Shown here in pieces: positions 10,461 through 46,955 of a DNA stretch of 57,210 bases; position 1 is the stretch's first letter; every line of letters starts with the position of its first letter. Origin of the DNA: Candidatus Woesearchaeota archaeon (GTDB lineage: Archaea > Nanobdellota > Nanobdellia > Woesearchaeales > WJKL01); contig JAHWIM010000062.1 of assembly GCA_019322535.1 (NCBI GenBank), forward strand, positions 1-57,210. Reading direction: 5' to 3'. Below the pieces are notes generated by a model. It ran no database searches and was not told the origin of the DNA. It was given only the letters and a program-made list of their open reading frames with translations. The translations under genes and the position numbers were made by a program.

Positions 10461-10472
10461 ATAAATCCCTCC

Positions 10473-12440: not shown

Positions 12441-12606
12441 GTAATGCACCCCCAAGTTTATTCCCAAAGTAGAAAAACATCAATGATTTATTAATTTAAT
12501 TGTTCTGTTTTGTATATATTTTTTTACTAGTTTTGTATACGATAAATGGACATAATATTTATATATGAGTTATTGCTAATTTTGTTTAGGAAAGGGGGTT
12601 TTTTTA

Positions 12607-21445: not shown

Positions 21446-21452
21446 GGTTAAA

Positions 21453-22286: not shown

Positions 22287-22290
22287 TATC

Positions 22291-22905: not shown

Positions 22906-22935
22906 AAGGGATTTTAATATAGGGGGAGGATATTT

Positions 22936-25581: not shown

Positions 25582-26837
25582 TGAATCTAAAAAACATAAA
25601 AGATGAAGAAGTATTAAGAATAATAAAAAAAGAGCTTGACAGGCAAAGAAATGAATTTAATATGATTCCTTCTGAGAATTATTGCAGCGAAGCTGTTCTT
25701 GAGGCTTCTGGCTCTGTGATGATGAATAAATATGCAGAAGGTTATCCTAAAAAAAGATATTATCAAGGAAATCAATTTATTGATGATATAGAAATACTTG
25801 CAATTGAAAGAGCAAAAAAATTATTTAATGCTGAACATGCTAATGTACAGCCAAATTCTGGAAGCCCTGCAAACATGGCTGTTTATTTTGCTTTGCTTGA
25901 ATTAAAAGATAAGATTCTTGGCATGAATCTTAGCCATGGAGGTCATTTAACTCATGGAAGTCCTGTTAATTTTTCTGGAAAATATTATAATTTTATAGAA
26001 TATGGAGTTGAAAAAGATACAGAAAGGCTTGATATGGACAAGATAAGAAAATTAGCTGAACAAGAAAAGCCAAAGATAATATTAAGCGGTTATACTGCTT
26101 ATCCAAGATTGATTGATTTCAAGGAGTTTCATTCTATAGCACAGGATGTTGGAGCAATTTCAATGGTTGATATGGCACACATAGCTGGTCTTATTGCTGG
26201 TGGTGCACATCCTTCACCATTTCCTTTTACAGATGTTGTAACTACAACAACACACAAGACATTAAGAGGTCCAAGAAGTGCAATGATTTTATGCAAAGAG
26301 AAATATGCAAAAGCAATTGACAAAGCTGTTTTTCCTGGTCTGCAAGGAGGACCTCATGAACATACAATAGCTGGAAAAGCTGTTTGTTTTGCAGAAGCAA
26401 TGAAGCCTGAATTTAAAGAATATTCTCATCAAATTGTAAAAAATGCAAAAGCTCTTGCTGAAGTTTTGATGGAAAATGGAATTAAATTAGTTTCAAACGG
26501 AACAGATAATCATCTGATATTGATTGATTTAATTAAAACAAAATCTGTTGGAAAACCAGGCATTGGAAAAGATGGAGCAGTTGCTTTAGAAGAAGCAGGA
26601 ATTATAACAAACTGCAACACAATACCTTTTGATCCTTCTACCCCATTCAGGCCTTCTGGAATAAGGCTTGGAACACCTATTCTCACAACAAGAGGCATGA
26701 AAGAAGGAGAGATGAAAGAAGTAGGAGAAATAATGGCAAAAGTGCTTAATAATTTAGGAGATGCTTCAATCAGACCTAAACTAAAACAAAGAGTTACTGA
26801 GCTTTGCAATAAATTCCCAGTTTATGAAGAAGAATAA
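25581..26837 (+). CDS. glyA: Serine hydroxymethyltransferase
   Basis: [35 protein letters not shown] (PLP lysine). Confidence 0.95.
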
Positions 26838-27327
26838 AAAAAGAGGTAAACCTGTATTTAAGGATTTTTTAAGAGCTGAAAGTATAGACGAATTAGTCAG
26901 TTCTGAAGAAAGAGATTTATTTAGAACGCAAAGATTTCTTGGCAGACAAATGATTATGCATGAGATAGAACAGCTGCAAAAACAACAAAAAAAACCTGTT
27001 AAGAGAGGTAAACCTAACTATTCTTTACAAGGGCGAAAAGGAATTAACTATAAACCACTTAAATATAAGCCTATTATTTATATTCCTTTGAAAGCAAGAA
27101 ATATGTTTCGCACTAGTTATAGAAGAAGATTCAAAAAAGGTAAAATACGCAGAGGTGTGTACAGGGTTGCTGGGCTTGGACGTCGTAAGATGAGGAGAGA
27201 AAGAATCAACAGAGGTAGTAAGAAAGGATATCTTGAAGGCATTGTACAAAGAGATTCAAAAATTTTACCTATGCCTTACCAACCAGGAAGAGGATATGCA
27301 GGATACACAAATACAAAAGCTGCCTAA
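26824..27327 (+). CDS. Highly basic (K/R-rich) hypothetical protein
   Basis: 167-aa ORF overlapping the glyA end by 14 nt. It has R/K runs ([28 protein letters not shown]) and no hydrophobic segment. Confidence 0.45.
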
Positions 27328-28133
27328 GATTTTTCTAGATTTTTTATTACAAGAAGCAATGTTATTCTTCCCCAATTTATTAAGAGAATGAAGACTGCAA
27401 TTAAGAAAAGCAATAAGAGAAAGTTTGCTTCTAGTTGAGTTGAGATTGTATACAAAGCTAGAACAGGTAATCCTGTTGTGAGTATTAAAGCTGAGATTAA
27501 GATTTTTGCTTTTTTAATGCCTGTAAATAATGATTGTTTTATGATTTTTGGTATTTGTTTTAGTTCTTTTATTTTATGTATATAAGCAAATGAAATATAC
27601 ATGAAATACAAGAAGATTAAAGATATTATGAGATATACTGGAATTGCTATTTGTATTTGGTCAATGCTGAAGATGTATTTTGATGCAAAATTAATGATTG
27701 CAATTAATGGAATAATGAATATAAGGAATAAAATTCCAAACTTTAACTGATATTTTAAGAAAAGTGATTTTTGATTTAGAATAAAATTTGAGAGATTCCA
27801 GTTTATTCCATTTATTACAATGTATAGGGCAAACATTGTGACAACAAACAAGGTTACGTTTTTAAGTATTGATTTATAATGTGAATATTTTTCCATCATT
27901 GGGCCTAAAGAAGCTAATATCTCTTCATCTGACTCTGCTTCTGCTGAAATGTTTTCCATTGGTGCTAAGAATGCATTAATATCTTCTCCCATTGATATAG
28001 CAAAGTCCATAAATACAGCTGAAGATATGACTATTAAAATTGATTGCATTACAAATAAGACTAAGAAAATAAATTTATGTTTTTTTATTAATTTAATTGA
28101 CTGTTTTAAAGAAGTTTTTAGAGTGTTTAGCAT
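27324..28133 (-). CDS. Polytopic membrane protein E2 (paralog of 35279..36043), last gene of the surface operon
   Basis: 269 aa with a basic N-terminus, TM1, a ~45-aa acidic loop and several further hydrophobic helices. Its layout and several local motifs match E1. Confidence 0.75.
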   Translation of the reverse strand: MLNTLKTSLKQSIKLIKKHKFIFLVLFVMQSILIVISSAVFMDFAISMGEDINAFLAPMENISAEAESDEEILASLGPMMEKYSHYKSILKNVTLFVVTMFALYIVINGINWNLSNFILNQKSLFLKYQLKFGILFLIFIIPLIAIINFASKYIFSIDQIQIAIPVYLIISLIFLYFMYISFAYIHKIKELKQIPKIIKQSLFTGIKKAKILISALILTTGLPVLALYTISTQLEANFLLLLFLIAVFILLINWGRITLLLVIKNLEKS

Positions 28134-28139: not shown

Positions 28140-31100
28140 CTAAATTACATCTGTTGATAATCTATCTGCAAGATCAGCTGAACTTATTGCTCTTGCATTT
28201 GCCATTCCTCCTTCAGGAGACACATAATATTGCCAAGCACTTTCTTCTATTTTTGTATAATCTACTCCTGCTGAAATTATGACTGTTCCAATATCATAAT
28301 TGTTTAACTTAGCTTCATCTGGTAGATTTTCTTTTGTAACAATAATTTTACCTTTTTCTTTTTCAGGCGGTGGATAACACTTCTTATCTTCCTTACAATA
28401 TTTCTTTGTGCAGTTGTCATCTAGTTTTCCATCCCAATCACAGTCACAATCTTTTAGATTTAGTTTATTTGGTGCAAAACATCTTGGATAAGTAAAGCAT
28501 TCGTCTTCATCACAGTAGAATTTAGTAGTAGCATCACAATCCTCTTCATCTATGTCTCCATCTCCGTCACAATCACATGGTGCTTCTAGATTTTTATATA
28601 AACCTCCTTGTCGGCAGGCTATATCTTCAGCTTTTGTCCATGGTTTTACTTTTAGTGTGATAGATTTTCTTTGTGGATTGTTTTGATAAGTAATAATATC
28701 TTGGCTTCTTGATTCTGAGCAGCTGCCTTGAGATCTGTTTCCAGGAGCATGTCTTAATTCAAGCTGTAATCTCCAATCTTCTGGTTTATCTGTTGATATA
28801 ATTCTTGGTTCTGTAATAGTAAATTTATATTCTCTACATGGTGTAATTTTTTCATCATTTATAGTACATGTTGATTTTTCTGGAACCATTGGTTGTTGTG
28901 TAAATTCAAAGATCATTCCTTGATTTCCTATTGGAACTGGCGCATTTTTCCCCCATGTCTGCCATTCTGTTGTTCCTTCATGTAAATATTTATCACCTTT
29001 TTGATCTGGTTTTTCTGAAGTATCTTGGACATATATTGAAACAGTTTCTCTATTTGTTACTGTGCCTTCTTGTATTAGTTTTGCATATGAGCCAGATGTA
29101 GGATCAACAGTCCATGTAGCTGGTGTTTTTGCAAAGTCTGATTTTGTTATTGTTCTTCCTCCTCCTAATACATCTAATTCATTCAGTCCTTGAACTAGGA
29201 TTGTTCTAGTTGGGTCATCTTCTGCTGGCTTTAAATCAATAAATCTTCCTTCTCTTTCTAACAGTTTTTCACCTTTCTTATTATAGAGCTGCATGAATAG
29301 ACATTGTTTTTGACCTTGGACAAACACTTCAAATGGATTTAACTTAATTGTATCTTCTACATAATAGACTTGTTCATCGCAATGAACATTATTACATTTT
29401 ACATTACCAAAATATGCTCTTCCTCTTAGATTCCAAAGCAGTCTTCCTTGGTCGCATCTGAAATAACCTTGAGTTTGGTCAAATCTGCAAGCAACAATAT
29501 CATAAGTTGTTGCATCTGAAATTGGAGCGTAGAAAACACCCATTCTTTTGCCAACTAAATGTCCTGGTGGAATACATTGCGATGCAACAGTTGGATTATT
29601 AATGTAAAGTGTAATTTTAACATTATCATATCTTTGAAGTCCTGTCTGCACTGTATGGACTGATCTTGATTCATAACTGCTTTGTTTTAATCCTCTTCCT
29701 GTGTATATAACTCTTGAAGGTCCTGGAGCTTCTTGATTAACTCTAGAAATGCCTACATATGCATCAGAAGTGCAGTCACATCCTGAAGGAGAGTTATCAT
29801 TTTCATCTGCATTTTGGCTTTTTGCTCGTTCACATGCTACTCCATCATAATTATAGAGTTCATAATCTGATACACAAGAAAGACTTACTGTATATCTATC
29901 TATATCGCAGCCAGGTGTTATCATCCAAGCTACTCTATATTCATATGTTGCTTCTTCAGTATCTGGATCCCAAGTCAAATATTCTCTATCTGCTGGCCAT
30001 GCATTTACAGAAGAATGCATTGGTTGTGAATATGCTGCATCAATAAATCCTTCTAAGTTAAACCCCCAATCTCCTGTTAATGCTCCTAAACAAACTTTTT
30101 CTGCAATTGCTCCTTCTCCTACCCCGATATAGTTACGCAAAGCAGCATTATTATAATCATCTAGCAGGGCGTCTGTTGCTTCTTGTACTCCTCCAAAGAT
30201 TGCATCTGCTCCTCCTCTTAATTTATTTCCTAGTTCTGGGCTTTTACCAGCTCCTGACCAAGGAGTACATCCATTTGTTAAACGAGTAATACCCCTATAA
30301 ATCCATTTACAGATATATTGCGTGAATACTTCTTTGCAAAAGCCTGTATCTGCCATTCCTGTTGTTTTAATTTGCTGCAGACAGTTGACTAATCCTGAAA
30401 TGAAATTTTTTGCTGCAACTAATCTATTTCTTATTTGAGGTACACAAACACATTGGAATGCTGGCCATGCGTCTCCTGTATTTAAATAAGGCTCATCTTT
30501 ATTCAGCCAGCTGTCTTGTCCAAAGCAAGCTGGTTTATCTCTTCCTTCATAATATTTATATGGATCATAATAATATCCTAATCTTTGGTATCTATAACTC
30601 CATCCTTTTTCATCAGTTGGTGGTTCTTTTATTGTACCTTGTCTATCAAGACAATAGCAGATAGGTCCTTCTTTTGGACAGTCTGCATCTTGCTGTAGTG
30701 CGCTAAACACTCTATCTGTTGTACCTTTTTTCTGCAATTCTTGTTTGAGTTCAAAAGAAGTTAGACATTTTCCATCTTGGTATTTCTTTTTTACGCAGAG
30801 GTCTTTGCATTTTTTAGTTTTCTCTTTTTTAAGGAATACATTTTTGCCTGATGTTGTTACTTTTAATGTTTCTGGTGTGTCTCCTGGTGGTATTGAACTA
30901 CTTACTCCTCCAACTCGTTTAAGAGTAGCATCGTCCCCTGCACCTGTATCATGAGCATAAACAGCTCCTTTATACACCCAGCACTCAGGATAAGGTCCTC
31001 CTTTAAATTTACAATTTTCTGCAGGAAATGATCTTAGTATTATTCCTTGTGTGCTTGTTATTTCACTGCAGCCAGCTGCTTTTTGAATTTTTAGTCTTAT

Positions 31101-33305
31101 TGTTTCAAAAGTTGCGTTCCCTGTCCATTCTGCAGGAGAACTTCTGCATAAGAACCTATCACAAATCCACCTATAAGAATTGTAGACACTTGCTTCTTTT
31201 TTCCACGCAGCGTATGTTTTTGGACATAGTGTGAATAAATTATATATTTCTGAGAGAGTATTTTCTTTTGTAAAATTAGTTGGTAAATCATTTTGTTTTA
31301 ATTCTTTTAATTGTTTTTCATATTTTTTCTTTAATGCATCTGTATTTTGTTGTTGAAGAAGACTTAGTATACCTGTTGGCATTTCTTTTTCAGCTACTTT
31401 TTCAAATCCTTCTTTTGCAATATCTTCTGCTTTTTCTTGGGTAATTTTTTTAATTTCTTCTTCAAATAATTTTTTAAAATCACTAGTTCCTACTTTTGGA
31501 CAAGGAGCTGGTTTTGTCATTGTTGCTCCTGGTGTTTTTGAAATAATTTGATCTTCAATGTGTTCAAAGTTAGCAACCCATCTTCTGTGGATTGTTGTTA
31601 TGAGTCTTACTCCAAACATTATTGCGCAAGCTCCTCCAATATATTTCATTACTTCATCAAGTGCTTCTATTGCTTTATCTAAGTTAGTTATTGTTTCATT
31701 TAGAAATTCTGCTCCATCATCTAAGAGCCAGTCAGGAAGAACATCTCTTGGATCTATTCTACTAGTGTCAACATGCATTGCAATATCCATACATTTTGTT
31801 TGGAAATCACGGATCTCTTCATACTTTCCTGTATTTGGATTTAGAATCTTATGAGTGTATTCAACTTTAACTTTTAAAGGAAATTTGAATTGTTTTGTAA
31901 GGTCTTCCCATAGATCATCTGAAAAATCATTTAGTCCTTCTAATTTTTTAAGATTATATCTGATGTACCATAGTGTTTTTGCATCATTTGGTTTTTTAAT
32001 TGTAGGAGAATGAGGTAAAATTTTGCAACTGTACTTATACAGGTTATCATCCTGCATTGATTCTGCTTCGCAGGCTCTTTCAAACCTTACATCTCTTATA
32101 ATAGGTTCTTTGCCTAATCCTTGATAACTTATATTTAATATAAAAGACATAATTTCTGTGCCTTCTTCTAATCTTTCAGGAGACATTGAAGTAGGAGATT
32201 GGTATTCAATCATATTTATTACATTCCAGCTAGCTTCTCCACTATAGCAAGTTCCAATTCTATAGTTTAAAGAAAGCTCTGTAGAAAGACCCATTCTGTC
32301 AATTGCAACTAAAACAAGATTTAGTGAAATTTCTTCTTGCGGTCTTTGCGGCTGAGGCAGTGCTTCTTCTAAACCTGGTGGAACTTGAGTTGGCTGCGTT
32401 CCTGTTCCGCCAACAGTTAAGAAACCAGGAATTATAGTTGTACCAACTAAATCAACATCATCTAATTTAAAATTGCCATTTTCATCTGCATTTGTTGAAG
32501 CTAATTTTTCTCTTTTTGTTGTTACATTTCCTGTTATTGGGTCTACTTCTCTTGTTTCAAGATATAATTCAATTTTAGCAAATGGCTCTGTAGCTCCTTC
32601 TATATCTGTTTGAGTGTCTGTTTCATAAAAGAAAGAACCGCTTGATGGAGTAAGGTTTTCTATTGTTGGAGGCTCTGTATCCAAATATGTTTTAGTTTTA
32701 AACTTATCTGTATTGTTTGCTTTATCTTTTGCAATTATTTCTATGAGGTTAATTCCTTCTGCTAATGCTATTGTTTGGTTAATAGAAGTAACATTTTCTG
32801 CAGAATAAACAGTGTTATTTTGATCAAGTATTATATCTAATTTAACTGCTTCTGAAACAGTTCCTCTAACCAGCCAAGTTGAGATGTTTGTCAGATCTGG
32901 AAATTTTGTTAAAATATTAAGTTCTGGCTTTGTTAAATCAACAACAACTGTGAATTCTTTAAAATTAATATTATCAGCAGGGTCTACTGATTCTAACTTA
33001 ATTGTATTTGCTGGAACTAATGAACTTAAATCAACAGAAGGAAAGTTAAATGTTCCTTGCATATTTGGAGTTGATTTTCTCTGCTTAACTCCATTAACAT
33101 AAAGATAGACTGTTGACATTGGTTCTGTTGTTCCTGTAATATCTAATCTGTTTGTTGTAACAAAATAAGGAATTGTTGCATTAATGAAAGGCGGTGTTTT
33201 GTCTTCTGCTGCTGTAGTTGTTACATTTGCATCTTGTGCAACTACTGCTAAAGGCAGCAATATAATCAATTCAATCATTAATACTGATATTAGTTGTTTT
33301 GACAT
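28140..33305 (-). CDS. Giant secreted protein B2 (1721 aa): Ig-like repeats, large Cys-rich region, acidic DxDxDG Cys repeats
   Basis: Signal peptide ...LPLAVVAQD. The N-terminal ~350 aa are Cys-free, full of N-x-S/T sequons, and have D-T-x-P-P domain boundaries. About 50 Cys follow (manual count). CDCDGDGDIDEEDCD and CDCDWDGKLDDNC lie near the C-terminus. Confidence 0.9.
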   Translation of the reverse strand: MSKQLISVLMIELIILLPLAVVAQDANVTTTAAEDKTPPFINATIPYFVTTNRLDITGTTEPMSTVYLYVNGVKQRKSTPNMQGTFNFPSVDLSSLVPANTIKLESVDPADNINFKEFTVVVDLTKPELNILTKFPDLTNISTWLVRGTVSEAVKLDIILDQNNTVYSAENVTSINQTIALAEGINLIEIIAKDKANNTDKFKTKTYLDTEPPTIENLTPSSGSFFYETDTQTDIEGATEPFAKIELYLETREVDPITGNVTTKREKLASTNADENGNFKLDDVDLVGTTIIPGFLTVGGTGTQPTQVPPGLEEALPQPQRPQEEISLNLVLVAIDRMGLSTELSLNYRIGTCYSGEASWNVINMIEYQSPTSMSPERLEEGTEIMSFILNISYQGLGKEPIIRDVRFERACEAESMQDDNLYKYSCKILPHSPTIKKPNDAKTLWYIRYNLKKLEGLNDFSDDLWEDLTKQFKFPLKVKVEYTHKILNPNTGKYEEIRDFQTKCMDIAMHVDTSRIDPRDVLPDWLLDDGAEFLNETITNLDKAIEALDEVMKYIGGACAIMFGVRLITTIHRRWVANFEHIEDQIISKTPGATMTKPAPCPKVGTSDFKKLFEEEIKKITQEKAEDIAKEGFEKVAEKEMPTGILSLLQQQNTDALKKKYEKQLKELKQNDLPTNFTKENTLSEIYNLFTLCPKTYAAWKKEASVYNSYRWICDRFLCRSSPAEWTGNATFETIRLKIQKAAGCSEITSTQGIILRSFPAENCKFKGGPYPECWVYKGAVYAHDTGAGDDATLKRVGGVSSSIPPGDTPETLKVTTSGKNVFLKKEKTKKCKDLCVKKKYQDGKCLTSFELKQELQKKGTTDRVFSALQQDADCPKEGPICYCLDRQGTIKEPPTDEKGWSYRYQRLGYYYDPYKYYEGRDKPACFGQDSWLNKDEPYLNTGDAWPAFQCVCVPQIRNRLVAAKNFISGLVNCLQQIKTTGMADTGFCKEVFTQYICKWIYRGITRLTNGCTPWSGAGKSPELGNKLRGGADAIFGGVQEATDALLDDYNNAALRNYIGVGEGAIAEKVCLGALTGDWGFNLEGFIDAAYSQPMHSSVNAWPADREYLTWDPDTEEATYEYRVAWMITPGCDIDRYTVSLSCVSDYELYNYDGVACERAKSQNADENDNSPSGCDCTSDAYVGISRVNQEAPGPSRVIYTGRGLKQSSYESRSVHTVQTGLQRYDNVKITLYINNPTVASQCIPPGHLVGKRMGVFYAPISDATTYDIVACRFDQTQGYFRCDQGRLLWNLRGRAYFGNVKCNNVHCDEQVYYVEDTIKLNPFEVFVQGQKQCLFMQLYNKKGEKLLEREGRFIDLKPAEDDPTRTILVQGLNELDVLGGGRTITKSDFAKTPATWTVDPTSGSYAKLIQEGTVTNRETVSIYVQDTSEKPDQKGDKYLHEGTTEWQTWGKNAPVPIGNQGMIFEFTQQPMVPEKSTCTINDEKITPCREYKFTITEPRIISTDKPEDWRLQLELRHAPGNRSQGSCSESRSQDIITYQNNPQRKSITLKVKPWTKAEDIACRQGGLYKNLEAPCDCDGDGDIDEEDCDATTKFYCDEDECFTYPRCFAPNKLNLKDCDCDWDGKLDDNCTKKYCKEDKKCYPPPEKEKGKIIVTKENLPDEAKLNNYDIGTVIISAGVDYTKIEESAWQYYVSPEGGMANARAISSADLADRLSTDVI

Positions 33306-33306
33306 T

Positions 33307-35211
33307 TTATGTTATTATTTCTGGTTCTGGTATACTATATTGTTGAGTAAGCTGGTCTAGTTTTGTAATTACTTCAATTGCTTGTTCTGGAGACCTTTCT
33401 GGGTCTATATATGGTCTTTCTAAAACATGGAATCTTATTTCTTTTGCATATTTTAGTTTTTCCCAGTCAGCAGTCCAATTGCCTTGATAACCTCCTCTTA
33501 TTGTTACATCGTCTGATAAATATATTGTAATATTATAATTGTAATTCCATTTTGCTAACAGTTTAAGTGTGCTTGGACTTTCTGCATCTGAATAATATGA
33601 TGCATCGCTTTCAAAATCTCCTCTTTTGATAGTTATTAAGGCACTATTTTCTTCATCTAGCTCTAATGGCTCTGCTGGAGAGAATTCATAATGCTTGACA
33701 ACAGTAACAGGTATTTCAATAACTGGAGTTAAATAGAGATCAACTGATTTTTCTGTATTTGTTGTTACAAACATTTCTCTTGACTCATATCCTGGTTTTT
33801 CTCCTCTTAAAACTCCATTTGCACATTGAGGAACTTGTTCTGAAACATATGAGACAGCTCCTCTGAACTGCCATTCTGACTGTCCGATAGGACATTTCAT
33901 TCTTATACATGTAAATGAAATATTTACTCCATCTATTTCTGTTGTTAAATCTCCTGCTTCTTGTGTTGATACATTTTCAAAAGTGTGAACAGTTAATCTG
34001 TTTGTTTCTGTTTCTCTGCAGTATTCTTCTTCTTTTGCAGTTGTTTCAAATGAAAATATTGCTGATGCAAAATTAGATTTATCAGGAGCATTGTGGTTTA
34101 TTGAAACATCAAATCCAATGTTAAATACATAATCATCATGTTTTCTAGTTGCATCATCTTTTAATGTTACAAGAACAGGGTATCTTACATCGTAAGTAAA
34201 GTGCCACAGTTGTACGCATAAGACATTTAAGAAATCCTGACCTCTATTTGCATTTGATTTTAAAGTTCTGCCTTCATTTGGTCTTATATATAATTCAAAA
34301 GGCCATGATTCATCATAGCTAAAGGATACATGTGTGTCTGCATATTTTTCTTCTGTTATTGGCCAGACATAATGATTTTGTTCATATGGATATTTTTTTG
34401 GAATTGGCTCATATTTTGTCCTATCAACTGCAATTCTTGGAAGGTTTATGTATAACAAATGTTTTAGTTTATTTTCTACATCTTTTATTTGCCATGTTTT
34501 TGACCTGCAGCTAAATGCCATATCTGTATAAGGGATATCATTATCCATCGCTATCAGGTCTATTGTTCTTCTTTCTATGAACTTTGTTCTTATTTCTTCT
34601 CTTATGATCTGAGTTGCAAGCTCATACATTTTTTTGATCCTGTATGGGATTTTAACTGAGAAGTCTTCTAAAAAGAATTTCTGCTCTCTTGCTTTTAGGA
34701 TTACATCTAAAGGATAATTTACATCTACTCTGAAATCTTCTTCTCCTAAATCTATATCAACTGAGATGTCTCCAAGTTCTGTTATGTTGAATGTTTTGTT
34801 GAAAGGCTCAAATCCTTGCAGGCAGATAGGAAGATTATCATGCACATATGTTTCTAATTCCAATATTACATAATTTAAAGGAGGTATTCTTGTTTGCCCT
34901 CTGTAGAACCATAAAACTGTTTTAACTGGAGATATAGGAAATGGCGGAAGATAAGCATTTGCTTCTGTTTCTATTTCATCTGGTATATCAATAAAACCAC
35001 CATTTGCTCCTAATATGTTTGCTCCATCTCTTGATATTGTTTCAACACAGTCTAGGATGAATTGATTTACTGGAACAATTTCTGGTGGAACAAGTACTGT
35101 TGGCTTGAAAACAGAAACTTCTTGCCTTAGAAAGAAGAATAAAGCTGCTGAAAGCAATAGAATTATTCCTAGAATGATGAATACAGTTATTTGTCCTCTT
35201 TTTTTAAACAT
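33307..35211 (-). CDS. Large protein A2 (634 aa) with a class III (type IV pilin-like) signal peptide; paralog of A1
   Basis: N-terminus MFKKRGQITVFIILGIILLLSAALFFF. Shared blocks with A1 include CVETISRDGANILGANGGFIDIP, VNYPLDVIL and YDVRYPVLVTLKD. The C-terminus looks like a beta-sandwich. Confidence 0.88.
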   Translation of the reverse strand: MFKKRGQITVFIILGIILLLSAALFFFLRQEVSVFKPTVLVPPEIVPVNQFILDCVETISRDGANILGANGGFIDIPDEIETEANAYLPPFPISPVKTVLWFYRGQTRIPPLNYVILELETYVHDNLPICLQGFEPFNKTFNITELGDISVDIDLGEEDFRVDVNYPLDVILKAREQKFFLEDFSVKIPYRIKKMYELATQIIREEIRTKFIERRTIDLIAMDNDIPYTDMAFSCRSKTWQIKDVENKLKHLLYINLPRIAVDRTKYEPIPKKYPYEQNHYVWPITEEKYADTHVSFSYDESWPFELYIRPNEGRTLKSNANRGQDFLNVLCVQLWHFTYDVRYPVLVTLKDDATRKHDDYVFNIGFDVSINHNAPDKSNFASAIFSFETTAKEEEYCRETETNRLTVHTFENVSTQEAGDLTTEIDGVNISFTCIRMKCPIGQSEWQFRGAVSYVSEQVPQCANGVLRGEKPGYESREMFVTTNTEKSVDLYLTPVIEIPVTVVKHYEFSPAEPLELDEENSALITIKRGDFESDASYYSDAESPSTLKLLAKWNYNYNITIYLSDDVTIRGGYQGNWTADWEKLKYAKEIRFHVLERPYIDPERSPEQAIEVITKLDQLTQQYSIPEPEIIT

Positions 35212-35278: not shown

Positions 35279-36043
35279 TTAAGATTTTATTTTGTTTACT
35301 TCTTGAACAAAGTAGTTTCTTGCCCAAGCCATGAATATTACAAAAATGATTAGTGATACAAACGGTGCAAAAAATAATGGGATGGGAATTAATGTTAGAG
35401 TTGTGAATATTATTTGGAATGGGATATATATTAAAAGACATGGAATTAAAAGTTTAAGTATATTTTTTGTTCCAAAGGTTAAGGTTTTTCCTATTGATTC
35501 AAACACTTTGTTATGTTTTGTAAAGAATATGTAATTAATAGATAAGTAATAAGCTACTGCCAGGAGAAAAATATAAAATATGTGTCTGAAAGCAACTAAT
35601 TCTTTTAGAACACTTCCTACTGTCATGAGAAATGTTAATATTATTATTATAACTATAGATAAGAATAGATTTAGCAAGAAGAATTTTTTAAAATATTGTT
35701 TTGTGAATTTCTTTTTGAGAATAGTGCAGTATATTAAGCCTTTGCTTAGAGACCAGATTGCTATCATTACAATAAATACTAATATAACTGAGATTCCTAT
35801 TGAGATAACTAGATCTTGAAGCTGTGCTGTTATTGGCTGAAGCTGTTCTTGTGTCATTGAAAGCAAATCACCTTCTGGCATGTTTATTACAGCCATTTTT
35901 TTTTCTAAGAATGAACCTACTCCTTTTAATGTTAAGATAGCTACTGCAAAGAATAGCAAGTCAAATAACATAATGTAAATCCAAGTAATCTTTGGCTTGA
36001 AAGAGTCTTTGAAATCTTTTAATTTTTTCATTTTAGATGTCAT
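35279..36043 (-). CDS. Polytopic membrane protein E1 (paralog of 27324..28133)
   Basis: 254 aa with the same TM/loop layout as E2. The start is either the ATG at 36043 (11-nt overlap with gene D) or the ATG at 36031. Confidence 0.75.
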   Translation of the reverse strand: MTSKMKKLKDFKDSFKPKITWIYIMLFDLLFFAVAILTLKGVGSFLEKKMAVINMPEGDLLSMTQEQLQPITAQLQDLVISIGISVILVFIVMIAIWSLSKGLIYCTILKKKFTKQYFKKFFLLNLFLSIVIIIILTFLMTVGSVLKELVAFRHIFYIFLLAVAYYLSINYIFFTKHNKVFESIGKTLTFGTKNILKLLIPCLLIYIPFQIIFTTLTLIPIPLFFAPFVSLIIFVIFMAWARNYFVQEVNKIKS

Positions 36044-40927: not shown

Positions 40928-41608
40928 TTATTTTACAGTAAATTTAATTTCTCCCACATACTTGTTTGATGGTCTAAATTGATCAGTAACTGTTATCCTA
41001 TAAGTATAGGTTCCATGTTTTCTTAATGCAGCTGTATTGACTCCGCATTCTATTGGTATTGTGAAAACGTCTTGACCTGTTACTGTTCTTGTTGTTGAAA
41101 AGCTGTTTACTTTAGTGACTCCTGGTACTAATTTTCCATCTGGTTCAAATAGTTCATGGACTTCATCACAACCAATTTTATATTCTCCATTCATAACAAT
41201 TGGTATCATATCAACTACTACATGATGTAATGTAACAATTTCTCCTTTTTTGTAAACTGAACTTTTTCTTTCTCTGCATTTATTATAATCATCACTTACA
41301 TAACTTGCTAATACTAAATCCTTAATAGCAATTGTTTTATCTGGTTTTTCAGGAGGATCTTCAACTCTTTGTTCTAACCTTCTATAATGTGCTATATCTA
41401 ACAAAACTAATTCATCCATTGCTCTTTTTTTATTTTTTTCAGAAACAACTAACCTTTTTTCTAAATCTCCTTTTTCTTCAGATAATATTGCTGCTCTCTG
41501 AATCTGAGGCCTAACAACACCAAAATAATACCCTAAAAAAGATGTAACTGCAACAGCTGCAACTGTACAAGCTCCAATTACAAGGTATTTTATTTTTGTG
41601 CTTATCAT
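40928..41608 (-). CDS. Single-pass membrane protein C1 (tandem paralog of C2)
   Basis: 226 aa with an N-terminal TM. VHELFEPDGKLVPGVTKVNSFSTTRTVT...GVNTAAL...YRITVTDQF. Confidence 0.85.
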   Translation of the reverse strand: MISTKIKYLVIGACTVAAVAVTSFLGYYFGVVRPQIQRAAILSEEKGDLEKRLVVSEKNKKRAMDELVLLDIAHYRRLEQRVEDPPEKPDKTIAIKDLVLASYVSDDYNKCRERKSSVYKKGEIVTLHHVVVDMIPIVMNGEYKIGCDEVHELFEPDGKLVPGVTKVNSFSTTRTVTGQDVFTIPIECGVNTAALRKHGTYTYRITVTDQFRPSNKYVGEIKFTVK

Positions 41609-44600
41609 TCTTCTTCTACAGCAAGGGCTGTTTCCGCTTTTTTAGTGAAAAGTCCTTCGTCTTCTATTTTGAAGCAAGGATCGCTTGTTAATTCCCATGC
41701 ATCTTCTGCTGTTAATGCTTCTATATTAGCCATTATATCTCCTATTGCTGATAAAACTTTGATGAACATACAGAATTTATGTCCTCCAGGGAGTTCATGC
41801 CAGCATAGACTATAACATCCATAAGCAAGGCCCATTCCTATTAAAGCAAGTGGATCACTTAGTGCAGCCCGCCATAAACTAAGGACATAATTCCAAAATG
41901 CAAACAATGGAATAATATTAAATATAGCTCCCCAAAAATATTTGCACACCCTATAATCTTTTATTTCAGTGCATAGATTAGATGAAAATCCTGATTTGTA
42001 AGCATTAAATAAACAAGAGATATATTCACAATGTATTGCTCTATATTTATGTAAATTATAGACTATACCTGGAAGACAAAGTGTTGCCAGGCTTAATAAA
42101 AAATTATCTTTAACATTCATATAGCCCCCTGAAGTGCTTACTGCTCTGCTGTAATCTTCTGTTCCTTGGAATCCACCTAAAGCTGATTTTCCAAGATATG
42201 TAGGAGCATTTCTGTTTATCCAAGCAGCTCCACCACCTCCACCACCAGCAGCATTCCAATATTCTAAACCTTTTACTGTTTTTCCTTCTGGAAGTGGTGC
42301 GTGTTTGCAGTTAATAAATGCGCAATATTTGTCAGCATATTTACCAAATTTATCAGCAGCTGCTTTTGCTCCTTCTTCTGTAGTACAGGCTGTTCTTCTT
42401 CCTGCTTTAAGAGGTTCGCTTGCTTGAGGAACTGCTTTTGTTGCTAATTCTGCATCGCCAAAAATATTTTTAATCAGATCCCAAACCATTACTATTTGCC
42501 TGTAGGTGTAATACATCTTGCAAAGCATATCACTCCATTCAAAGATTCTTTGAAGCCAGCCAATTACTTGCCAGAAACCATTATCAATCCATTCATCATA
42601 CAGATCATCTATTTTATCTCTCTGGTTCTCAGTTACTTCTCCGATAGGAGCATCATACATACTAACAACAAGATCTATTGTCTCTTTCTCATAATTCATC
42701 AAAAATTTTTTTCTATAAGTAGAAAGCAAGTTGAAAGTGCAGTTTATAGTTAGATTTTCTAGTTTTGCTGCATCAAATGGTTTTAAATGAGTACCAATAA
42801 AGAATTCTTTACTTCCTCTTTCATTATTAAAGATAAAAAGATCATTTAAATAACCAATATCACCGCTGCAGTCTGCTAAGTCTACTGAAACTAATTGAGC
42901 ACCAGTTGATGTTCTTAATTTAAGATGGAAATACATCTGATGGTTGATTAAAGCTGTTGTGGATCTGTCAAGAGCTAATGGCATTGTACTAACTAAACTT
43001 CCTCTCCAATAATCTGGATTTTCTTCATAGCTTTTTGCAAAAACCTCAAACACCTGTTTAACTGTTTGATTATTTCCAGAAGAGTCAACAAAAGTAAAAG
43101 CAACATCTTCTCTTAGATAACCAGAACCAATAGGACCAACTGCCCATGTGCAGTTCCAATTTGTATTGTCTATTGTTGTGCAACTGCCTGGTGTTTCTTC
43201 ATAACCAAATGAACCCATTATTCTTGAGAAATCAGCAAATGCCTTAATTTCACTCTGGTCTTGAACTTGTACACTTACTACCATGTCATCTCCTGAAGAC
43301 AGTACTTTTGTTGGAATTTCTGTAATAGGTGTTATGTCTGCATAGTATTTTCTTCCTCGCGGCACTGTTTCATATCCTGTTACTGCAAGGATTTGCTCTT
43401 CTGAAAGTTCTTGCGCTTCTGGTGCTTTTCTGTCAATATATACTGAACCTTGTTTAACTCCTGTTGCTTCATTTCCAGCATCATCATACATTTTTATTAT
43501 GTAGAAATTCCCTCTTGTGCTGTGGGTTTTGCTGCTTTTAACATCATTCCATATACATTCCCAATTTGCACCAATTTTTTCACATCTATTTGCCTGGAAA
43601 TATTGGCCTGCATATGCCGCATCAACTTCTGACAAATCAATTAATGCTTGTCTTCCTTCCATGCCTGCTCCTGCATCTAAAATTGTTGCAACAATATCTT
43701 TTGGCATATCTCCAAGATAGCTTATAGCATTCCACGGATTTCTTGTTGCAACAGAAAGTATTTCTGGAGCTGTTGTGTCAACTGTAAATGATACAACAAC
43801 AGTTGCTTCTTGCACATTTCCAAAATCATCTCTTGCTGTGATTTTTATGTTATAGGTTCCTGTTGCCATTGCAAACTGCAGAGCTGGCCAAGTACAAGTA
43901 TATTCAACACCAGTTCTTGTACAAACAACAGCTGGAACAGATTCACCTTCTCCGAATTGTGAAAAGTCAGCAAAAATATTCTTAGCTTGAAGGCCTGTAT
44001 CTTCTAAGACTTTAATCTGGGCATTCACTGCAAAAGTACCTTCAGGAATATATTGCTGAAGCTGGACTCCTTGACTTATCATTTTAAATGAGTCTGTTTG
44101 TATTGCTGGAGGTGATACATCAAGTTCAAATCGAGGACTTGATCGTGAAGTAAGATGATCCATTTTATCATATGCTTTTATAATGAGATTTCCTGTGGTT
44201 GGAAGTGGAACAATTGTTGTAGTTGAATAGATACAGCCAGGAGCTGTGATATTTTGTTCATATAACATAACACTATTATCCCAGAATTCAACCCTTCTTA
44301 AACCAGAGCAGACAGAAAAATCATCTTCTTTCCATGCTCTGTCTTTCAAAGTATATGCAACAGAAACTATTGATCCATTTTGCGCTGGAAGCCTGTCAAA
44401 TTCAATAACAGGAGCAAGATTATCTAAAGTCATATTAATATTTTCAGACTGCAATAAGGTATTATCGTCTGAAAACAAAGAAACTGTTGATGGATAAGTA
44501 CCTCCTGCTAAGCTATAATATGCTGATTCAAAATTGCATGTATAACTTCCTGGTGTTATTTCTGTACAGTCTTGCATAGGAAAATCATTAACTTTAATTT

Positions 44601-44811
44601 GGTCTGGTGTTATTTCTGAATCACCATCTACAGAAGCAAGTGTTTCTAATGACCAACTGTCATAGCTGTCAAAAAAACCATTAATTCCTGCGTCACCACT
44701 ATGCTTTGTAACTGTTAATTGTGTCTGGGCAAATGCATTTGAAATATAGAAAGGCAAAGTTAGGATTATAATAATCATAAACATGGATTTTGCGTATAAG
44801 CTTTTTTTCAT
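41605..44811 (-). CDS. Giant secreted protein B1 (1068 aa): Ig-like repeats plus a Cys-rich hydrophobic C-terminal region; distant paralog of B2
   Basis: Signal peptide ...YISNAFAQT. Repeated D-x-x-x-P domain boundaries (DNLAPV, DVSPPA, DTTAPE, DRKAPE). The C-terminal motif CLPGIVYNL...CTEIKDYRVCKYFWGAI parallels CVPQIRNRL...CKEVFTQYICKWIYRGI in B2. Confidence 0.9.
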   Translation of the reverse strand: MKKSLYAKSMFMIIIILTLPFYISNAFAQTQLTVTKHSGDAGINGFFDSYDSWSLETLASVDGDSEITPDQIKVNDFPMQDCTEITPGSYTCNFESAYYSLAGGTYPSTVSLFSDDNTLLQSENINMTLDNLAPVIEFDRLPAQNGSIVSVAYTLKDRAWKEDDFSVCSGLRRVEFWDNSVMLYEQNITAPGCIYSTTTIVPLPTTGNLIIKAYDKMDHLTSRSSPRFELDVSPPAIQTDSFKMISQGVQLQQYIPEGTFAVNAQIKVLEDTGLQAKNIFADFSQFGEGESVPAVVCTRTGVEYTCTWPALQFAMATGTYNIKITARDDFGNVQEATVVVSFTVDTTAPEILSVATRNPWNAISYLGDMPKDIVATILDAGAGMEGRQALIDLSEVDAAYAGQYFQANRCEKIGANWECIWNDVKSSKTHSTRGNFYIIKMYDDAGNEATGVKQGSVYIDRKAPEAQELSEEQILAVTGYETVPRGRKYYADITPITEIPTKVLSSGDDMVVSVQVQDQSEIKAFADFSRIMGSFGYEETPGSCTTIDNTNWNCTWAVGPIGSGYLREDVAFTFVDSSGNNQTVKQVFEVFAKSYEENPDYWRGSLVSTMPLALDRSTTALINHQMYFHLKLRTSTGAQLVSVDLADCSGDIGYLNDLFIFNNERGSKEFFIGTHLKPFDAAKLENLTINCTFNLLSTYRKKFLMNYEKETIDLVVSMYDAPIGEVTENQRDKIDDLYDEWIDNGFWQVIGWLQRIFEWSDMLCKMYYTYRQIVMVWDLIKNIFGDAELATKAVPQASEPLKAGRRTACTTEEGAKAAADKFGKYADKYCAFINCKHAPLPEGKTVKGLEYWNAAGGGGGGAAWINRNAPTYLGKSALGGFQGTEDYSRAVSTSGGYMNVKDNFLLSLATLCLPGIVYNLHKYRAIHCEYISCLFNAYKSGFSSNLCTEIKDYRVCKYFWGAIFNIIPLFAFWNYVLSLWRAALSDPLALIGMGLAYGCYSLCWHELPGGHKFCMFIKVLSAIGDIMANIEALTAEDAWELTSDPCFKIEDEGLFTKKAETALAVEEE

Positions 44812-46955
44812 TTTGCTGCTATATATCTTGGTTCTAATTTTGGTCTGAATTGAGATGAAAGTTTTTCTAATATATTTTGGTTAAAAATATGCTCTATTTT
44901 TTCAGGAAGAGGTGTGTCTACAATGAAGAATGTTAAATTATTATCTTTGTATAAATTATTAGGAGAGATTATCAGATATCCTGTTTGATTATTAAAAATT
45001 GCTCCTCCTTTAAAATAATCATCATCAAATTTTACTTCTGGAATTGTATATTCTTCTTCAAAAGGCCATGAACCTTCTTCTCTTTTATCTTCTGGTATTA
45101 TAACAGGTTGATGATAGAACATGCTCATCTCTACTTCATATGTTCCTGGAACTAGTCTTAAACTAGATGTTGTATTTGTTACTTTTGCTATAGCTGTGAA
45201 TGGATCTTCTCCAACAAAATCATTTTGTCTTGATAATGACAAGACAACTTCCTCATCTGCACCAAGAGGAACAGCTTGTGTTGTAGGTTTTCCACCATCT
45301 TGCACTTTCTCTGTAGATAAAGAAGAAGTTAGATATTTCAAAACTCTAACCTCTTTGTCAATATAAGGATATACTCTTACTGTTGGAAATTCAATTGTAT
45401 CATTAAAGTCTACTGATAAATATAAAGTAGGCATATAGTAGTCAATATGATCTAAAACTAATAAACCACCAAAACAGAGAGGAAATCTTGAAATTAATGT
45501 TCCATTTTCATCAGTAGCTCCTATCTGGCAGCCTTGATCACCGCACTGAAATCCTACAGAAACTCCTTGTATTGGCTCATCTGTGGATTCATCAACTACT
45601 TTGATTGTTACATTTCCACTATTTCTTTGATTTTCATTGCATAAAAGAGATGATTGAAATTCTGGAACTGGCTCAAATCCCTGAAAGCTTTCATCTATAA
45701 ATTCATTATTTCTAAAGTTAGATTCTAGAGCAAATCTAAATGTATATCCTTCTTCTCTAAGAGCAGCTGGGTCTCTAATTTCAACAACAACAGGGTAGCT
45801 TAAGTCATAAACATTATTATACTTTGTTGAACCTAATGAAAATAATTCTGCAAGATCATTGAGCAAAGATTGTCCTTTTATTATTTCTCCTTTGCTATTT
45901 ATGTCAAAATATATCGGCCACCAAGCTAGATAATTGAATGTAACTGCTAGATCAGAATAAGGCTGTGAGTCTCTGCTTAAATTTATAGGAAGCTCAACTG
46001 ATTCATAAAGTGCTGCTTGTAGTGGATCTGGAAAATTTCTTTTTACAAAATTCAGAGTATCATAAACTTGAAAAGCAGGAACATATATCATTAATATTTC
46101 TTCAATTTTTTCTTTAACTTTTGTTCTTAACCATATGACACTTGGATCTGTGCCAAATTCTGTATGTGAGAATGGAGGCAGTCTGTTTGGATCAAGACCT
46201 GAATAAGCATCTATTAAATCAAGAGCTTGTTTTTCAAAAACTTTGTATTCTATCTGAATGTTTGTTATACCTGTTGCTAAATCATAAATTCTTCTCATAT
46301 TTACAGGAATAGAACCATAAAAATTATCTACTCTGTGAGTTTTGTCTGCTAATTCAACTTTGAGTGGATAATTTAAGAACAAAGCAACATTAGATGATGT
46401 TACTCTTGTTATAGATTTAAATTCACCAGTAGGTGTTATTTCATAGCCTTGTACTTTAAATGCATTATAGTTGTTTAAACAAGAACCTATTTCTTCTTCA
46501 ATATATCTGTCAACTTGAGCTTCGATTGAACGATCACCTGGGGTAATTCTGTATAAAGGAGGTCTTAAGGAACTAAACAAACAATTTCCTCTGCAGTCAT
46601 TTGGTGCTTTTAAATACCACCAATATGGAACATAAAGTCCTGAGTTTGGTGCAAATTCTAAAGCGTCTGCTTCTGTTGGATTTTGAGATGAAACAGAGAT
46701 TCCAAAATCTTCAAAATAAATATAACCTCCTCCTTCTCCTAATAGTTTAAGTCCTTCTGTGCCAACTTTTTCAAGACATTCTTGCGTAAATTGTCTTATT
46801 GGCTCAAATTCAATAGGAATACTTACAACAGCAGGAATTTCTTCTATTATTGCTCTCTTAACAACCCTTGATCTTATGAAAAAAAAGGTAAATACTGCAA
46901 ATAAAATTATTACTCCTAAGATTATGAAAAGCGTTATTTGTCCCCTTTTTTTCAA
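44808..46955 (-). CDS. Large protein A1 (715 aa) with a class III (type IV pilin-like) signal peptide; first gene of the operon
   Basis: TTG start at 46955 with a GAGGGG SD 7 nt upstream. N-terminus (M)KKRGQITLFIILGVIILFAVFTFFF. Paralogous blocks shared with A2. A CarboxypepD_reg-like segment (VTIKVVDESTDEPIQGVSV...TDENGTL). Confidence 0.88.
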   Translation of the reverse strand: MKKRGQITLFIILGVIILFAVFTFFFIRSRVVKRAIIEEIPAVVSIPIEFEPIRQFTQECLEKVGTEGLKLLGEGGGYIYFEDFGISVSSQNPTEADALEFAPNSGLYVPYWWYLKAPNDCRGNCLFSSLRPPLYRITPGDRSIEAQVDRYIEEEIGSCLNNYNAFKVQGYEITPTGEFKSITRVTSSNVALFLNYPLKVELADKTHRVDNFYGSIPVNMRRIYDLATGITNIQIEYKVFEKQALDLIDAYSGLDPNRLPPFSHTEFGTDPSVIWLRTKVKEKIEEILMIYVPAFQVYDTLNFVKRNFPDPLQAALYESVELPINLSRDSQPYSDLAVTFNYLAWWPIYFDINSKGEIIKGQSLLNDLAELFSLGSTKYNNVYDLSYPVVVEIRDPAALREEGYTFRFALESNFRNNEFIDESFQGFEPVPEFQSSLLCNENQRNSGNVTIKVVDESTDEPIQGVSVGFQCGDQGCQIGATDENGTLISRFPLCFGGLLVLDHIDYYMPTLYLSVDFNDTIEFPTVRVYPYIDKEVRVLKYLTSSLSTEKVQDGGKPTTQAVPLGADEEVVLSLSRQNDFVGEDPFTAIAKVTNTTSSLRLVPGTYEVEMSMFYHQPVIIPEDKREEGSWPFEEEYTIPEVKFDDDYFKGGAIFNNQTGYLIISPNNLYKDNNLTFFIVDTPLPEKIEHIFNQNILEKLSSQFRPKLEPRYIAAK

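Follow-up and report, generated by a model that had tools for sequence, protein, structure and literature searches.

The window analysed here, i.e., the whole stretch of 57,210 nucleotides of a Woesearchaeota contig, encodes two giant proteins on its minus strand, B1 (41605..44811, 1068 aa) and B2 (28140..33305, 1721 aa), both taken from the list of open reading frames and its translations. Immediately upstream of B1 lies A1 (44808..46955, minus strand, 715 aa), and immediately upstream of B2 lies its paralogue A2 (33307..35211, minus strand, 634 aa; BLASTP E=2e-35 between the two A proteins). The N-termini of A1, starting with MKKRGQITLFIILGVIILF, and of A2, starting with MFKKRGQITVFIILGIILLL, display a [KR]-G-Q motif with a hydrophobic helix behind it, which characterizes them as class III (pilin-type) signals with predicted cleavage, and a prepilin peptidase gene (Peptidase_A24, 63.4 bits) is present in the genome. 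Translations further revealed two polytopic membrane proteins, E1 (35279..36043, minus strand, 254 aa), belonging to the first module, and E2 (27324..28133, minus strand, 269 aa), encoded immediately downstream of B2. The adjacency of A1 and B1 was found in almost all of 80 related loci reaching far enough upstream, and the gene order A1-B1...D-E1-A2-B2 recurred in many of these 80, E1-like genes being among those found in related loci. An A-type gene, nearer to A2 than to A1, also directly precedes the giant in 5 out-group loci, and behind the giant all five encode a membrane protein for which 5-7 transmembrane segments are predicted, so that A-B-E triads occur in 5/5 out-group genomes. Throughout the contexts examined, the gene for the core described below adjoins an A gene, and in many cases there is an E gene beside it as well.

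B1 begins with a Sec-type signal peptide (aa 1-28, 44728..44811, minus strand), read from the sequence, with predicted cleavage after AFA (...SNAFA|QT); it is the only part of B1 with a Kyte-Doolittle value above 1.6. It is followed by an array of Ig-like repeats (aa 29-584, 43060..44727, minus strand), supported by hhalign against the B2 array, in which the Pfam matches Big_13 (24.6) and Big_3_3 (22.8) stay below the gathering threshold of 27. The AlphaFold model, covering aa 585-1068, opens with a beta-sandwich (aa 585-720, 42652..43059, minus strand, pLDDT ~96), to which all Foldseek matches of the model are confined, all of them weak and Ig-like. The remainder is a C-terminal all-alpha Cys-rich core (aa 728-1068, 41608..42630, minus strand), defined by the AlphaFold helices and conserved columns. 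Eleven of its Cys residues are present in every sequence of the 30-sequence alignment A4, two of them, C764 and C830, falling to at least 90% conservation in the 71-sequence alignment A6. Within the core, B2 homology, predicted helices and column conservation delimit a Cys hairpin block (aa 905-966, 41914..42099, minus strand), modelled as a short helix, a 28-residue helix and a 23-residue helix (model helices 320-325, 329-356 and 360-382) and containing C912, C928, C933, C947 and C956. The Gly run AAGGGGGGAAW, to which the earlier note on this DNA had drawn attention, is indeed present in B1 (aa 855-865, 42217..42249, minus strand), but it is poorly conserved, being variable across the family and kept among close relatives only, and falls in a low-confidence loop (pLDDT <50 at model residues 272-276).

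The core of B1 contains two hydrophobic helices (aa 968-1004, 41800..41910, minus strand; model helices 384-401 and 403-420, pLDDT 82-95) which are specific to B1 and lacking in B2. Two segments of this part, IIPLFAFWNYVLSLW (aa 966-980) and LALIGMGLAYGCYSLCW (aa 988-1004), had been suggested as possibly embedding in a membrane. This suggestion was not supported: with a transmembrane segment taken as ~19 or more residues above a Kyte-Doolittle value of 1.6 and free of conserved charges, none was found in the C-terminal half of B1, where the maximum over 19 residues is 1.53. Moreover, conserved polar or charged positions occur within the first segment (D/N974) and just after it (K981), and both segments are packed by AlphaFold as helices of a soluble bundle. 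On these grounds, the C-terminus of B1 is not predicted to be a transmembrane anchor.

B2 likewise starts with a Sec-type signal peptide (...AVVA|QD) and an Ig-like array, followed by a beta domain and a helical, Cys-rich core interrupted by a beta-rich insert; behind the core lie further beta domains and a Cys/Asp-rich tail. Its AlphaFold model covers aa 330-1350. Weak hhalign and HMM matches placed a long helix and the helices following it, including the motif RWICDRFLCR, at aa 525-750 (31056..31733, minus strand), colinear with B1 aa 743-835; the model predicts a 66-residue helix in this region. The Cys hairpin block of B2 (aa 946-1012, 30270..30470, minus strand), located by hhalign and the model, comprises a short, a 28-residue and a 24-residue helix (model helices 617-622, 626-653 and 659-682) and C952, C954, C975, C990 and C999. 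It is followed by a conserved post-hairpin core (aa 1013-1350, 29256..30269, minus strand), recognized by hhalign with an out-group profile, which is common to B2 and the out-group giants (profile-profile comparison, 231 columns, E=6.9e-9) and absent from B1. The Pfam Ig-like family Glucodextran_B reached 21.9 on B2, below the gathering threshold of 27. Every one of the 39 B2 homologues that has a source name is labelled Woesearchaeota, and some B2 homologues possess C-terminal glucosaminidase, VanY or trypsin domains. Ig-like Pfam families do pass their thresholds in homologues (Glucodextran_B with 37.9 in P0018, Big_13 with 30.7 in P0019), so the fold of the repeats is Ig-like, though B1 and B2 themselves fall below.

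The earlier claim that both giants combine Sec signal peptides with Ig-like units is borne out by the translations, the units of both being bounded by D-x-x-x-P motifs, and the two arrays matched in profile-profile comparison with E=8.5e-10. The Cys block quoted there lies at aa 911-963 in B1 and aa 950-1006 in B2. Direct comparison of the two proteins gave a weak signal: the block was the best BLASTP segment, with E=0.043 and 21% identity, and in HMM searches of the 3718 six-frame ORFs of the genome the B2 HMM hit the B1 block with E=0.4 only, while the B1 HMM had no match to B2. Homology of the block is therefore argued from profile-profile comparison and transitivity. Pairwise HHalign comparison found its relationship significant, the family profiles matching with E=2e-4 to 5.5e-4, at a probability of 30-45% for the direct B1-B2 block comparison. 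When the columns of the Cys-rich B2 profile were shuffled 150 times with composition preserved, no shuffle (mean 17.1, SD 3.1, maximum 31.9) reached the real score of 39.4. A bridging profile built from giant proteins of other orders of the same class matched the same residues of B1 (E=8.8e-9) and B2 (E=6.9e-9) with a probability of ~96%, and in one out-group protein, L116, both HMMs hit identical residues. The proposal of a homologous Cys-spaced domain behind the Ig arrays is supported by profile comparison, shuffles and the out-group bridge.

The alignment pairs B1 C912/C933/C947/C956 with B2 C954/C975/C990/C999 at spacings of 21/14/9 and 21/15/9, respectively, leaving B1 C928 and B2 C952 partnerless. 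The last three pairs are invariant across B1, B2 and the out-group, and the first one (B1 C912 = B2 C954) is mostly conserved. Both AlphaFold models have the same helix pattern of 6 + 28 + 23/24 residues, preceded in each by a beta domain and a long helix, as judged from the predicted helix boundaries. Two more weak matches between B1 and B2 are colinear with the block, as is one alignment of 396 columns, and the C-x4-C motifs KYCAFINCK of B1 and RWICDRFLCR of B2 are counterparts. The common part thus exceeds the ~55-aa block and includes a colinear beta-sandwich, the long helix, the C-x4-C motif and the Cys hairpin, and B1 and B2 are distant, ancient paralogues. That the block similarity arose by chance from Cys-rich, helix-forming composition, the Ig arrays alone being related, is already disfavoured and hardly credible: it can draw on the BLASTP hit at E=0.043, the low direct hhalign probability and the non-significant search against the genome, but it is opposed by the shuffles, the out-group bridge to both families at E ~1e-8, the colinear matches of other motifs, the agreement of the predicted helix lengths, the paralogous gene neighbourhoods around B1 and B2, and a depletion of glycosylation sites common to both cores.

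This depletion, ~10-fold in both cores, was apparent from counts of N-glycosylation sequons. In the B1 core of 69 relatives 14 sequons were observed versus 133 expected, and in the hairpin of the B2 family none versus 12.7 expected, while the observed-to-expected ratio of the B2 post-hairpin core was 0.06-0.07. The Ig arrays gave ratios of 1.17 (B1) and 1.36 (B2) against a genome baseline of 1.14. Membrane embedding or lattice contacts could account for the depletion, too.

The Cys-spaced domain had not been recognized as a member of any described family, and our searches agree with this. No Pfam match with E<=0.1 was obtained over the core of B1 (aa 728-1068) or B2 (aa 520-1350), no NCBIfam match over either, nothing significant among PDB sequence profiles, and nothing at E<=1e-3 in Foldseek searches of the core against PDB and BFVD. 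No consistent Pfam family covered the core among the 71 relatives scanned; two unrelated Pfam matches, each in a single member (E ~0.008), were noted among them. The B1 family comprises 1168 clusters at 50% identity, and of 401 genomes sampled from the phylum, 313 had the B1-type domain and 246 the B2-type core. Usually there is one match of the giant family per genome, and paralogous giants form two or three modules per genome. We therefore regard the core as a genuine domain family that has not been described before. It occurs in most of the genomes sampled from the class Nanoarchaeia, which here means DPANN archaea of the Woesearchaeota/Pacearchaeota type.

As to function, the core would most likely act as the buried assembly or anchoring part of a cell-surface complex. 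The full reading that we favour, with somewhat better than even confidence, is that B1 and B2 are ancient paralogues, B1 having been shortened, and that their Cys core is a buried assembly or retention module docking onto A and/or E. Both giants would be exported by the Sec pathway and expose outward-facing Ig-like arrays with the common core behind them. B2, with its beta-rich insert and ~700 further residues, would represent the ancestral long form, and B1 a shortened copy arisen within the order to which the window belongs whose terminal helical bundle has two additional hydrophobic helices in its core. The Cys-stapled helical core would dock the B protein, which has no predicted membrane anchor of its own, to A and/or E on the surface of the cell; the Ig array in glycosylated form and the variable tail at the C-terminus could project outward and contact surfaces or host cells. 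The Sec signals and anchorless C-termini count toward a buried extracellular role of the core, as does its sequon depletion compared with the undepleted Ig arrays; the Bap- and SiiE-like arrays (see below) and the enzyme-tailed homologues of B2 count toward the extracellular role. Disulfides in the core are not guaranteed, the organisms being probably anaerobes.

A competing explanation, which we consider distinctly less probable but worth serious attention, is that the giants are S-layer (envelope lattice) proteins with the Cys-rich core as a lattice-forming oligomerisation domain. The presence of the family in most sampled genomes, usually as a single match each, resembles that of a housekeeping envelope component, and the Sec signal, the Ig-like arrays, the sequon-rich outer parts and a sequon-free core compatible with tight lattice contacts all agree with it. 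Archaeal Ig-like S-layer and envelope proteins, such as SlaA/SlaB of Sulfolobales and the Nitrosopumilus SLP, are likewise large and Sec-exported, bear exposed sequons and have a separate membrane-anchoring partner, as proposed here for the giants. Nevertheless, no sequence or fold match of B1 or B2 to a known S-layer family or to any solved S-layer structure in PDB was found, and they differ from these proteins by the all-alpha Cys-rich core. Besides, a genome has two or three paralogous giants, and the tie of each to its own A gene, often with an E gene too, suggests discrete complexes; enzyme heads such as some homologues carry are not usual in lattice proteins.

It is unlikely, in our opinion, that the helical domain is membrane-active, either as an anchor in the own membrane or as a colicin- or Bcl-2-like device for pore formation or fusion in a host membrane. 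The model of the B1 C-terminus appears similar to colicin/Bcl-2-type bundles in having long amphipathic helices around two hydrophobic ones, and three helices with little or no charge (aa 903-920, 963-980 and 987-1003) lie in its amphipathic bundle; the entire B1 domain is sequon-free, some homologues carry cell-wall hydrolases, and DPANN archaea make membrane contacts with their hosts. Unlike colicin and Bcl-2, however, the B1 domain is Cys-rich and has no Foldseek match, including to any pore-former or fusogen; no stretch of it reaches the Kyte-Doolittle threshold for a transmembrane segment, D/N974 is conserved inside the helix at aa 963-980, and the 11 conserved Cys would limit the unfolding that such devices need. 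Furthermore, only B1 has the hydrophobic pair at aa 963-1003; as B2 and the out-group giants lack it, a mechanism common to the whole family cannot depend on it. The sole Fusexin1 match in Foldseek concerned the beta domain (E ~8e-3, TM-score 0.14), and no fold match supports placing the core among pore-forming or fusogenic bundles or fusexins. Quite improbable, too, is that the A-B-E triad is a host-contact apparatus of Nanoarchaeia with the core as a new kind of membrane-engaging device. In such an apparatus pilin-like A and the membrane protein E would form the base, B would extend to the host through the Ig array, in certain lineages also through cell-wall hydrolase or protease heads, and the sequon-free Cys-stapled core together with the shielded hydrophobic hairpin of B1 might open or bridge the host envelope.

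Among the known systems nearest to B1 and B2 are the giant Ig-repeat adhesins of bacteria (Bap, SiiE, Lap-type), which, like B1 and B2, are large, secreted and built of tandem bacterial-Ig-like domains; over the repeats at the N-terminus, the B2-family profile had PDB matches to Bap (E=6.4e-10) and SiiE (E=5.9e-7). B1 and B2 differ in being archaeal and Sec-exported, and the genes beside theirs code for partners with a pilin signal or a polytopic membrane topology, in place of the type 1 secretion or sortase machinery of these adhesins. The putative retention module of B1 and B2, the Cys-rich helical core, has no PDB match and is unrelated to that of the bacterial adhesins. Among DPANN surface proteins, the giant SPEARE proteins of Nanohaloarchaeota are proposed to function in host contact (Hamm et al., 2019, PMC6642349). 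Some B2 homologues are comparable to them in bearing protease or cell-wall hydrolase domains; SPEARE proteins come from a different DPANN lineage than B1 and B2. We know of no helical Cys core in them.

Archaea of the Woesearchaeota and Pacearchaeota type are abundant and thought to live attached to other cells; to our knowledge, they are uncultured and no cell-surface molecule of theirs has been characterised. The widespread signature module defined here (a giant protein with an Ig array and an unmatched Cys-stapled helical core, next to a pilin-signal partner and often a small membrane protein) can be addressed directly by cryo-electron tomography, proteomics or heterologous expression, and a model of the domain could annotate more than 1000 protein clusters labelled hypothetical. 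The peptidoglycan hydrolase and protease heads carried on this scaffold in some lineages hint at engagement of bacterial or archaeal hosts.

The contig belongs to an archaeal genome that is small and AT-rich (1.09 Mb, 80 contigs, completeness 88%), and the relatives of the contig's proteins, where named, are labelled Woesearchaeota or Nanoarchaeota. Of its two giant secreted proteins, B1 is encoded by a single ORF of 1068 aa (41605-44811, minus strand) and B2 by an ORF of 1721 aa (28140-33305, minus strand). All peptide strings quoted in the earlier note were located in the translations at the positions it had ascribed to them, and both proteins begin, as it had described, with a Sec-type signal peptide, which is the sole stretch exceeding the Kyte-Doolittle membrane threshold (the usual 19-residue mean of 1.6) in either of them. 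The N-terminal repeats, read from the sequence as Ig-like arrays, aligned with one another in profile-profile comparison (E=8.5e-10, 210 columns). Pfam Ig-like models fell just below threshold on B1 and B2 and rose above it on several B2 homologues, and among PDB entries the B2-family profile matched Bap (E=6.4e-10) and SiiE (E=5.9e-7), both adhesins, over their Ig domains. As regards the arrays the observation is confirmed, and they represent an ordinary feature; the outer parts of B1 and B2 resemble both giant adhesins of bacteria and archaeal envelope proteins built from Ig domains.

Behind the array and a beta-sandwich lies the Cys-rich core, in which a Cys-spaced block shared by the two proteins had been noticed. 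In a BLASTP comparison of B1 with B2, the top segment was this same block (B1 897-966 / B2 940-1009, 21% identity), with an E value of 0.043 that is too weak by itself. The B1-type family profile was built from 3, later 22, sequences and the B2-type profile from 36. Since full-length hhalign reported the Ig region only, the C-terminal parts were cut out and compared separately, which paired B1 ~894-960 with B2 ~937-1003 (probability 30-45%, E=2.2e-4 to 5.5e-4). As Cys-rich composition can raise such scores, the B2 profile columns were shuffled 150 times: the real score was 39.4, versus a mean of 17.1 (SD 3.1, maximum 31.9) for the shuffles and 18.0 for the reversed B2 profile. Two weak colinear matches were also found, one between amphipathic helices with a terminal Cys (B1 743-785 / B2 542-584, E=0.024) and one between C-x4-C motifs (KYCAFINCKHAP versus RWICDRFLCRSSP), and a permissive colinear alignment extended from the last Ig unit to the hairpin (B1 564-971 / B2 324-1018, E=1.7e-3). 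In a search of 3718 ORFs from all six frames of the genome, the B1 block was matched by the B2 HMM at E=0.4 only and B2 was missed by the B1 HMM; the relationship is below the reach of HMM-versus-sequence search and was detected by profile-profile comparison only. Judged from these alignments, the direct evidence for a common Cys block is weak but consistent.

The evidence that we consider decisive, likewise drawn from sequence comparison, comes from the out-group giants, i.e., B-type proteins from other orders of the same archaeal class. In these orders the B1 profile matched exactly the Cys block, at E=2e-7 to 3e-5 per genome, and the ORFs that contain it are giants of 1960-2540 aa. A profile of five out-group giants matched the B1-family profile (E=8.8e-9, probability 95.7%, 59 columns) and the B2-family profile (E=6.9e-9, probability 95.8%, 231 columns) with identical start residues and, in each case, a second colinear long-helix match, while in the out-group protein L116 the B1 and B2 HMMs both matched at the same positions. 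Because both blocks match the out-group giants, they are by transitivity homologous to each other, and B1 and B2 are very probably homologues. The domain proposed to be common to both proteins is thus upheld by the profile-profile matches, the beaten shuffles and the out-group bridge, in the face of which chance similarity, compatible with the BLASTP value taken alone, is extremely improbable. Four cysteines correspond (B1 C912/C933/C947/C956 and B2 C954/C975/C990/C999); the last three (B1 C933/C947/C956) are invariant in B1, B2 and the out-group; the first is conserved for the most part. Each family also has a cysteine of its own, C928 in B1 and C952 in B2.

Residues 585-1068 of B1 were modelled with AlphaFold2 using 71 aligned relatives (mean pLDDT 83), and residues 330-1350 of B2 using 36 sequences (pLDDT 70). 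In the B1 model a confident beta-sandwich (aa 585-720) leads into an all-alpha domain built from long helices, where the Cys block forms a short helix, a 28-residue helix and a 23-residue helix. The B2 model shows the same order, starting with a beta domain, a 66-residue helix and more helices and continuing with a beta-rich insert and the Cys block (a short helix with 28- and 24-residue helices), past which additional helices and beta domains follow. The Gly run of B1 is placed in a loop whose pLDDT is below 50.

The hydrophobic segments that follow the Cys block of B1 had been supposed capable of embedding in a membrane, a reading that did not hold. The highest 19-residue mean in the C-terminal half is 1.53, under the threshold of 1.6; the second segment has about 13 uncharged residues only; the first keeps D/N at position 974 in 71 relatives, with a conserved K at 981 just after it; and in the model both segments form the next two helices of the bundle (pLDDT 82-95). 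The transmembrane reading was rejected on these grounds of hydropathy, conserved residues and modelled structure, and the two helices, for which neither B2 nor the out-group giants possess a counterpart, are best read from the model as forming the hydrophobic interior of a soluble bundle. A bundle active on membranes, which the hydrophobicity of these helices might favour and the conserved D/N974 opposes, is a minority alternative and a quite unlikely one.

No match at E<=1e-3 was obtained with Foldseek for the B1 and B2 models against PDB or for the B1 model against BFVD; the best matches (E about 8e-3 or weaker) were mostly short, 120-180 columns, to Ig-like or beta-sandwich structures, consistent with the beta domains of B1 and B2. 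Profile searches of the core against PDB sequences likewise gave no significant match, those to Protocadherin-15 (E=0.019) and a chemoreceptor (E=0.078) being judged compositional. The impression that the domain belongs to no described family agrees with Pfam and NCBIfam, which hold no model for the core of the window proteins or of any of the 71 relatives; no account of the core family emerged from literature searches, nor is it treated in a 2026 paper on archaeal type IV filaments. The core is a new domain family, and the succession of pilin-signal gene, giant and membrane protein (A-B-E) a new conserved gene module, whereas giant prokaryotic surface proteins as a general kind are known.

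When the B1 C-terminus was used for an exhaustive HMM search, 1168 clusters at 50% identity (E<=1e-3) were obtained, versus only 2 relatives in a word-indexed homologue search; full-length members of these clusters are nearly all about 1000-1200 aa long, with the domain C-terminal. Of 401 genomes sampled from the phylum, 313 have the B1-type domain and 246 the B2/out-group-type core, the latter usually once per genome, in frames of 1500-3200 aa.

B1 is directly preceded by A1 and B2 by A2. These two upstream genes are clear paralogues (E=2e-35), and their products start with a K-R-G-Q motif and a hydrophobic helix, the pilin-type (class III) signal of archaea; the source genome encodes a class III signal peptidase. 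In the related loci retrieved with a 10-sequence core alignment as query (80, in named Woesearchaeota/Nanoarchaeota assemblies), A1 stands directly upstream of B1 wherever the contig is long enough, and in many of the longer ones D, E1, A2 and B2 come next. In each of the five out-group genomes an A gene nearer to A2 precedes a giant B, and the giant is followed by a membrane protein for which 5-7 transmembrane segments are predicted; the triad A-B-E, with a giant resembling B2, was therefore the ancestral unit. This triad is duplicated in the taxonomic order of the window's archaeon, one copy having been shortened to give B1.

Several further features of these loci were observed. The polytopic membrane proteins E1 and E2 were considered as archaeosortase-like enzymes; this was dropped, as they have no Pfam match and E2 has no Cys. 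A third B-type paralogue of 1350-1800 aa adjoins an A1-like gene in some genomes of the same order (L103-L108) and carries the B1-type helical domain internally (E=1e-33 to 1e-46), followed by about 500 further residues; in L104 it occupies 2854-7488 (plus strand), with the A1-like gene next at 7549-9900 and the start of a B1-like gene at 9972. Gene F (47128-48255, plus strand) encodes a Cys-rich protein divergent from A1, with a weak Dicty_CTDC match. Matches to F (E=1e-17 to 4e-72) adjoin A1 in many related loci, as a rule on the strand opposite to it, and given this conserved place F is probably part of the same system. Gene D (36033-40304, minus strand; 1423 aa), found between B1 and E1 in many related loci, is Ala/Lys/Glu-rich with long helical stretches and has 1 N-X-S/T sequon versus 6.7 expected; it might serve the complex as a stalk or spacer. 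Many contigs with the Woesearchaeota-type operon (L026, L027, L030 and others) are titled 'uncultured Methanosarcinales archaeon', a label that looks unreliable.

The core avoids N-glycosylation sequons. In 69 proteins the B1-type helical domain has 14 sequons versus 133 expected from composition (ratio 0.11), the ratio in the same proteins being 1.17 for the Ig array and 1.02 for the beta-sandwich, and the genome-wide baseline 1.14. In the B2 family the ratio is 1.3-1.6 in the Ig array, beta domain and first helices and 0-0.28 from the insert through the post-hairpin core, with 0 sequons in the hairpin versus 12.7 expected. The ten-fold effect is robust across 20-48% identity, the counts overstating independence through kinship. 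The source genome encodes an AglB/STT3 oligosaccharyltransferase. Selection therefore excludes glycans from the core and not from the arrays, a pattern that would be expected of extracellular proteins whose core surface is buried in an assembly.

Neither a membrane anchor nor a known sorting signal was found in the translations and hydropathy profiles of B1 or B2, and we infer that retention is a function of the core. The conserved, glycan-free, putatively Cys-stapled core would bind A and/or E and so retain and assemble the giant at the cell, with the glycosylated Ig array and the variable tail directed outward; of the roles considered this is the likeliest, although we propose it tentatively, at somewhat short of even confidence. 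A role of the giants in an S-layer lattice is doubtful.

With regard to the tail that core-mediated retention would leave facing outward, some B2 homologues carry there enzyme domains well over the Pfam threshold: a glucosaminidase (PF01832; P0018 aa 1702-1855), a VanY D-Ala-D-Ala carboxypeptidase (PF02557; P0037 aa 1912-2045) and a trypsin-like protease (PF13365; P0041 aa 1575-1714). In view of such varied domains at the C-termini, the variable tail seems to be a payload position; the enzymes suggest that the wall of another cell is engaged, and the payloads hint at attack on bacterial cell walls. The tail of B2 itself (aa 1351-1721; 28143-29255, minus strand) contains Asp/Cys-rich repeats (CDCDGDGDIDEEDCD, CDCDWDGKLDDNC), which resemble calcium-binding motifs, have no Pfam match and are partially conserved in the family.

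Apart from the giants, the window holds a large cluster of genes for purine de novo synthesis and folate one-carbon metabolism (7579-26837), notable because purine biosynthesis is usually described as absent from DPANN archaea. It includes apparent PurF-PurD (16358-19027, 889 aa) and PurC-PurE (22936-24447, 503 aa) fusions.
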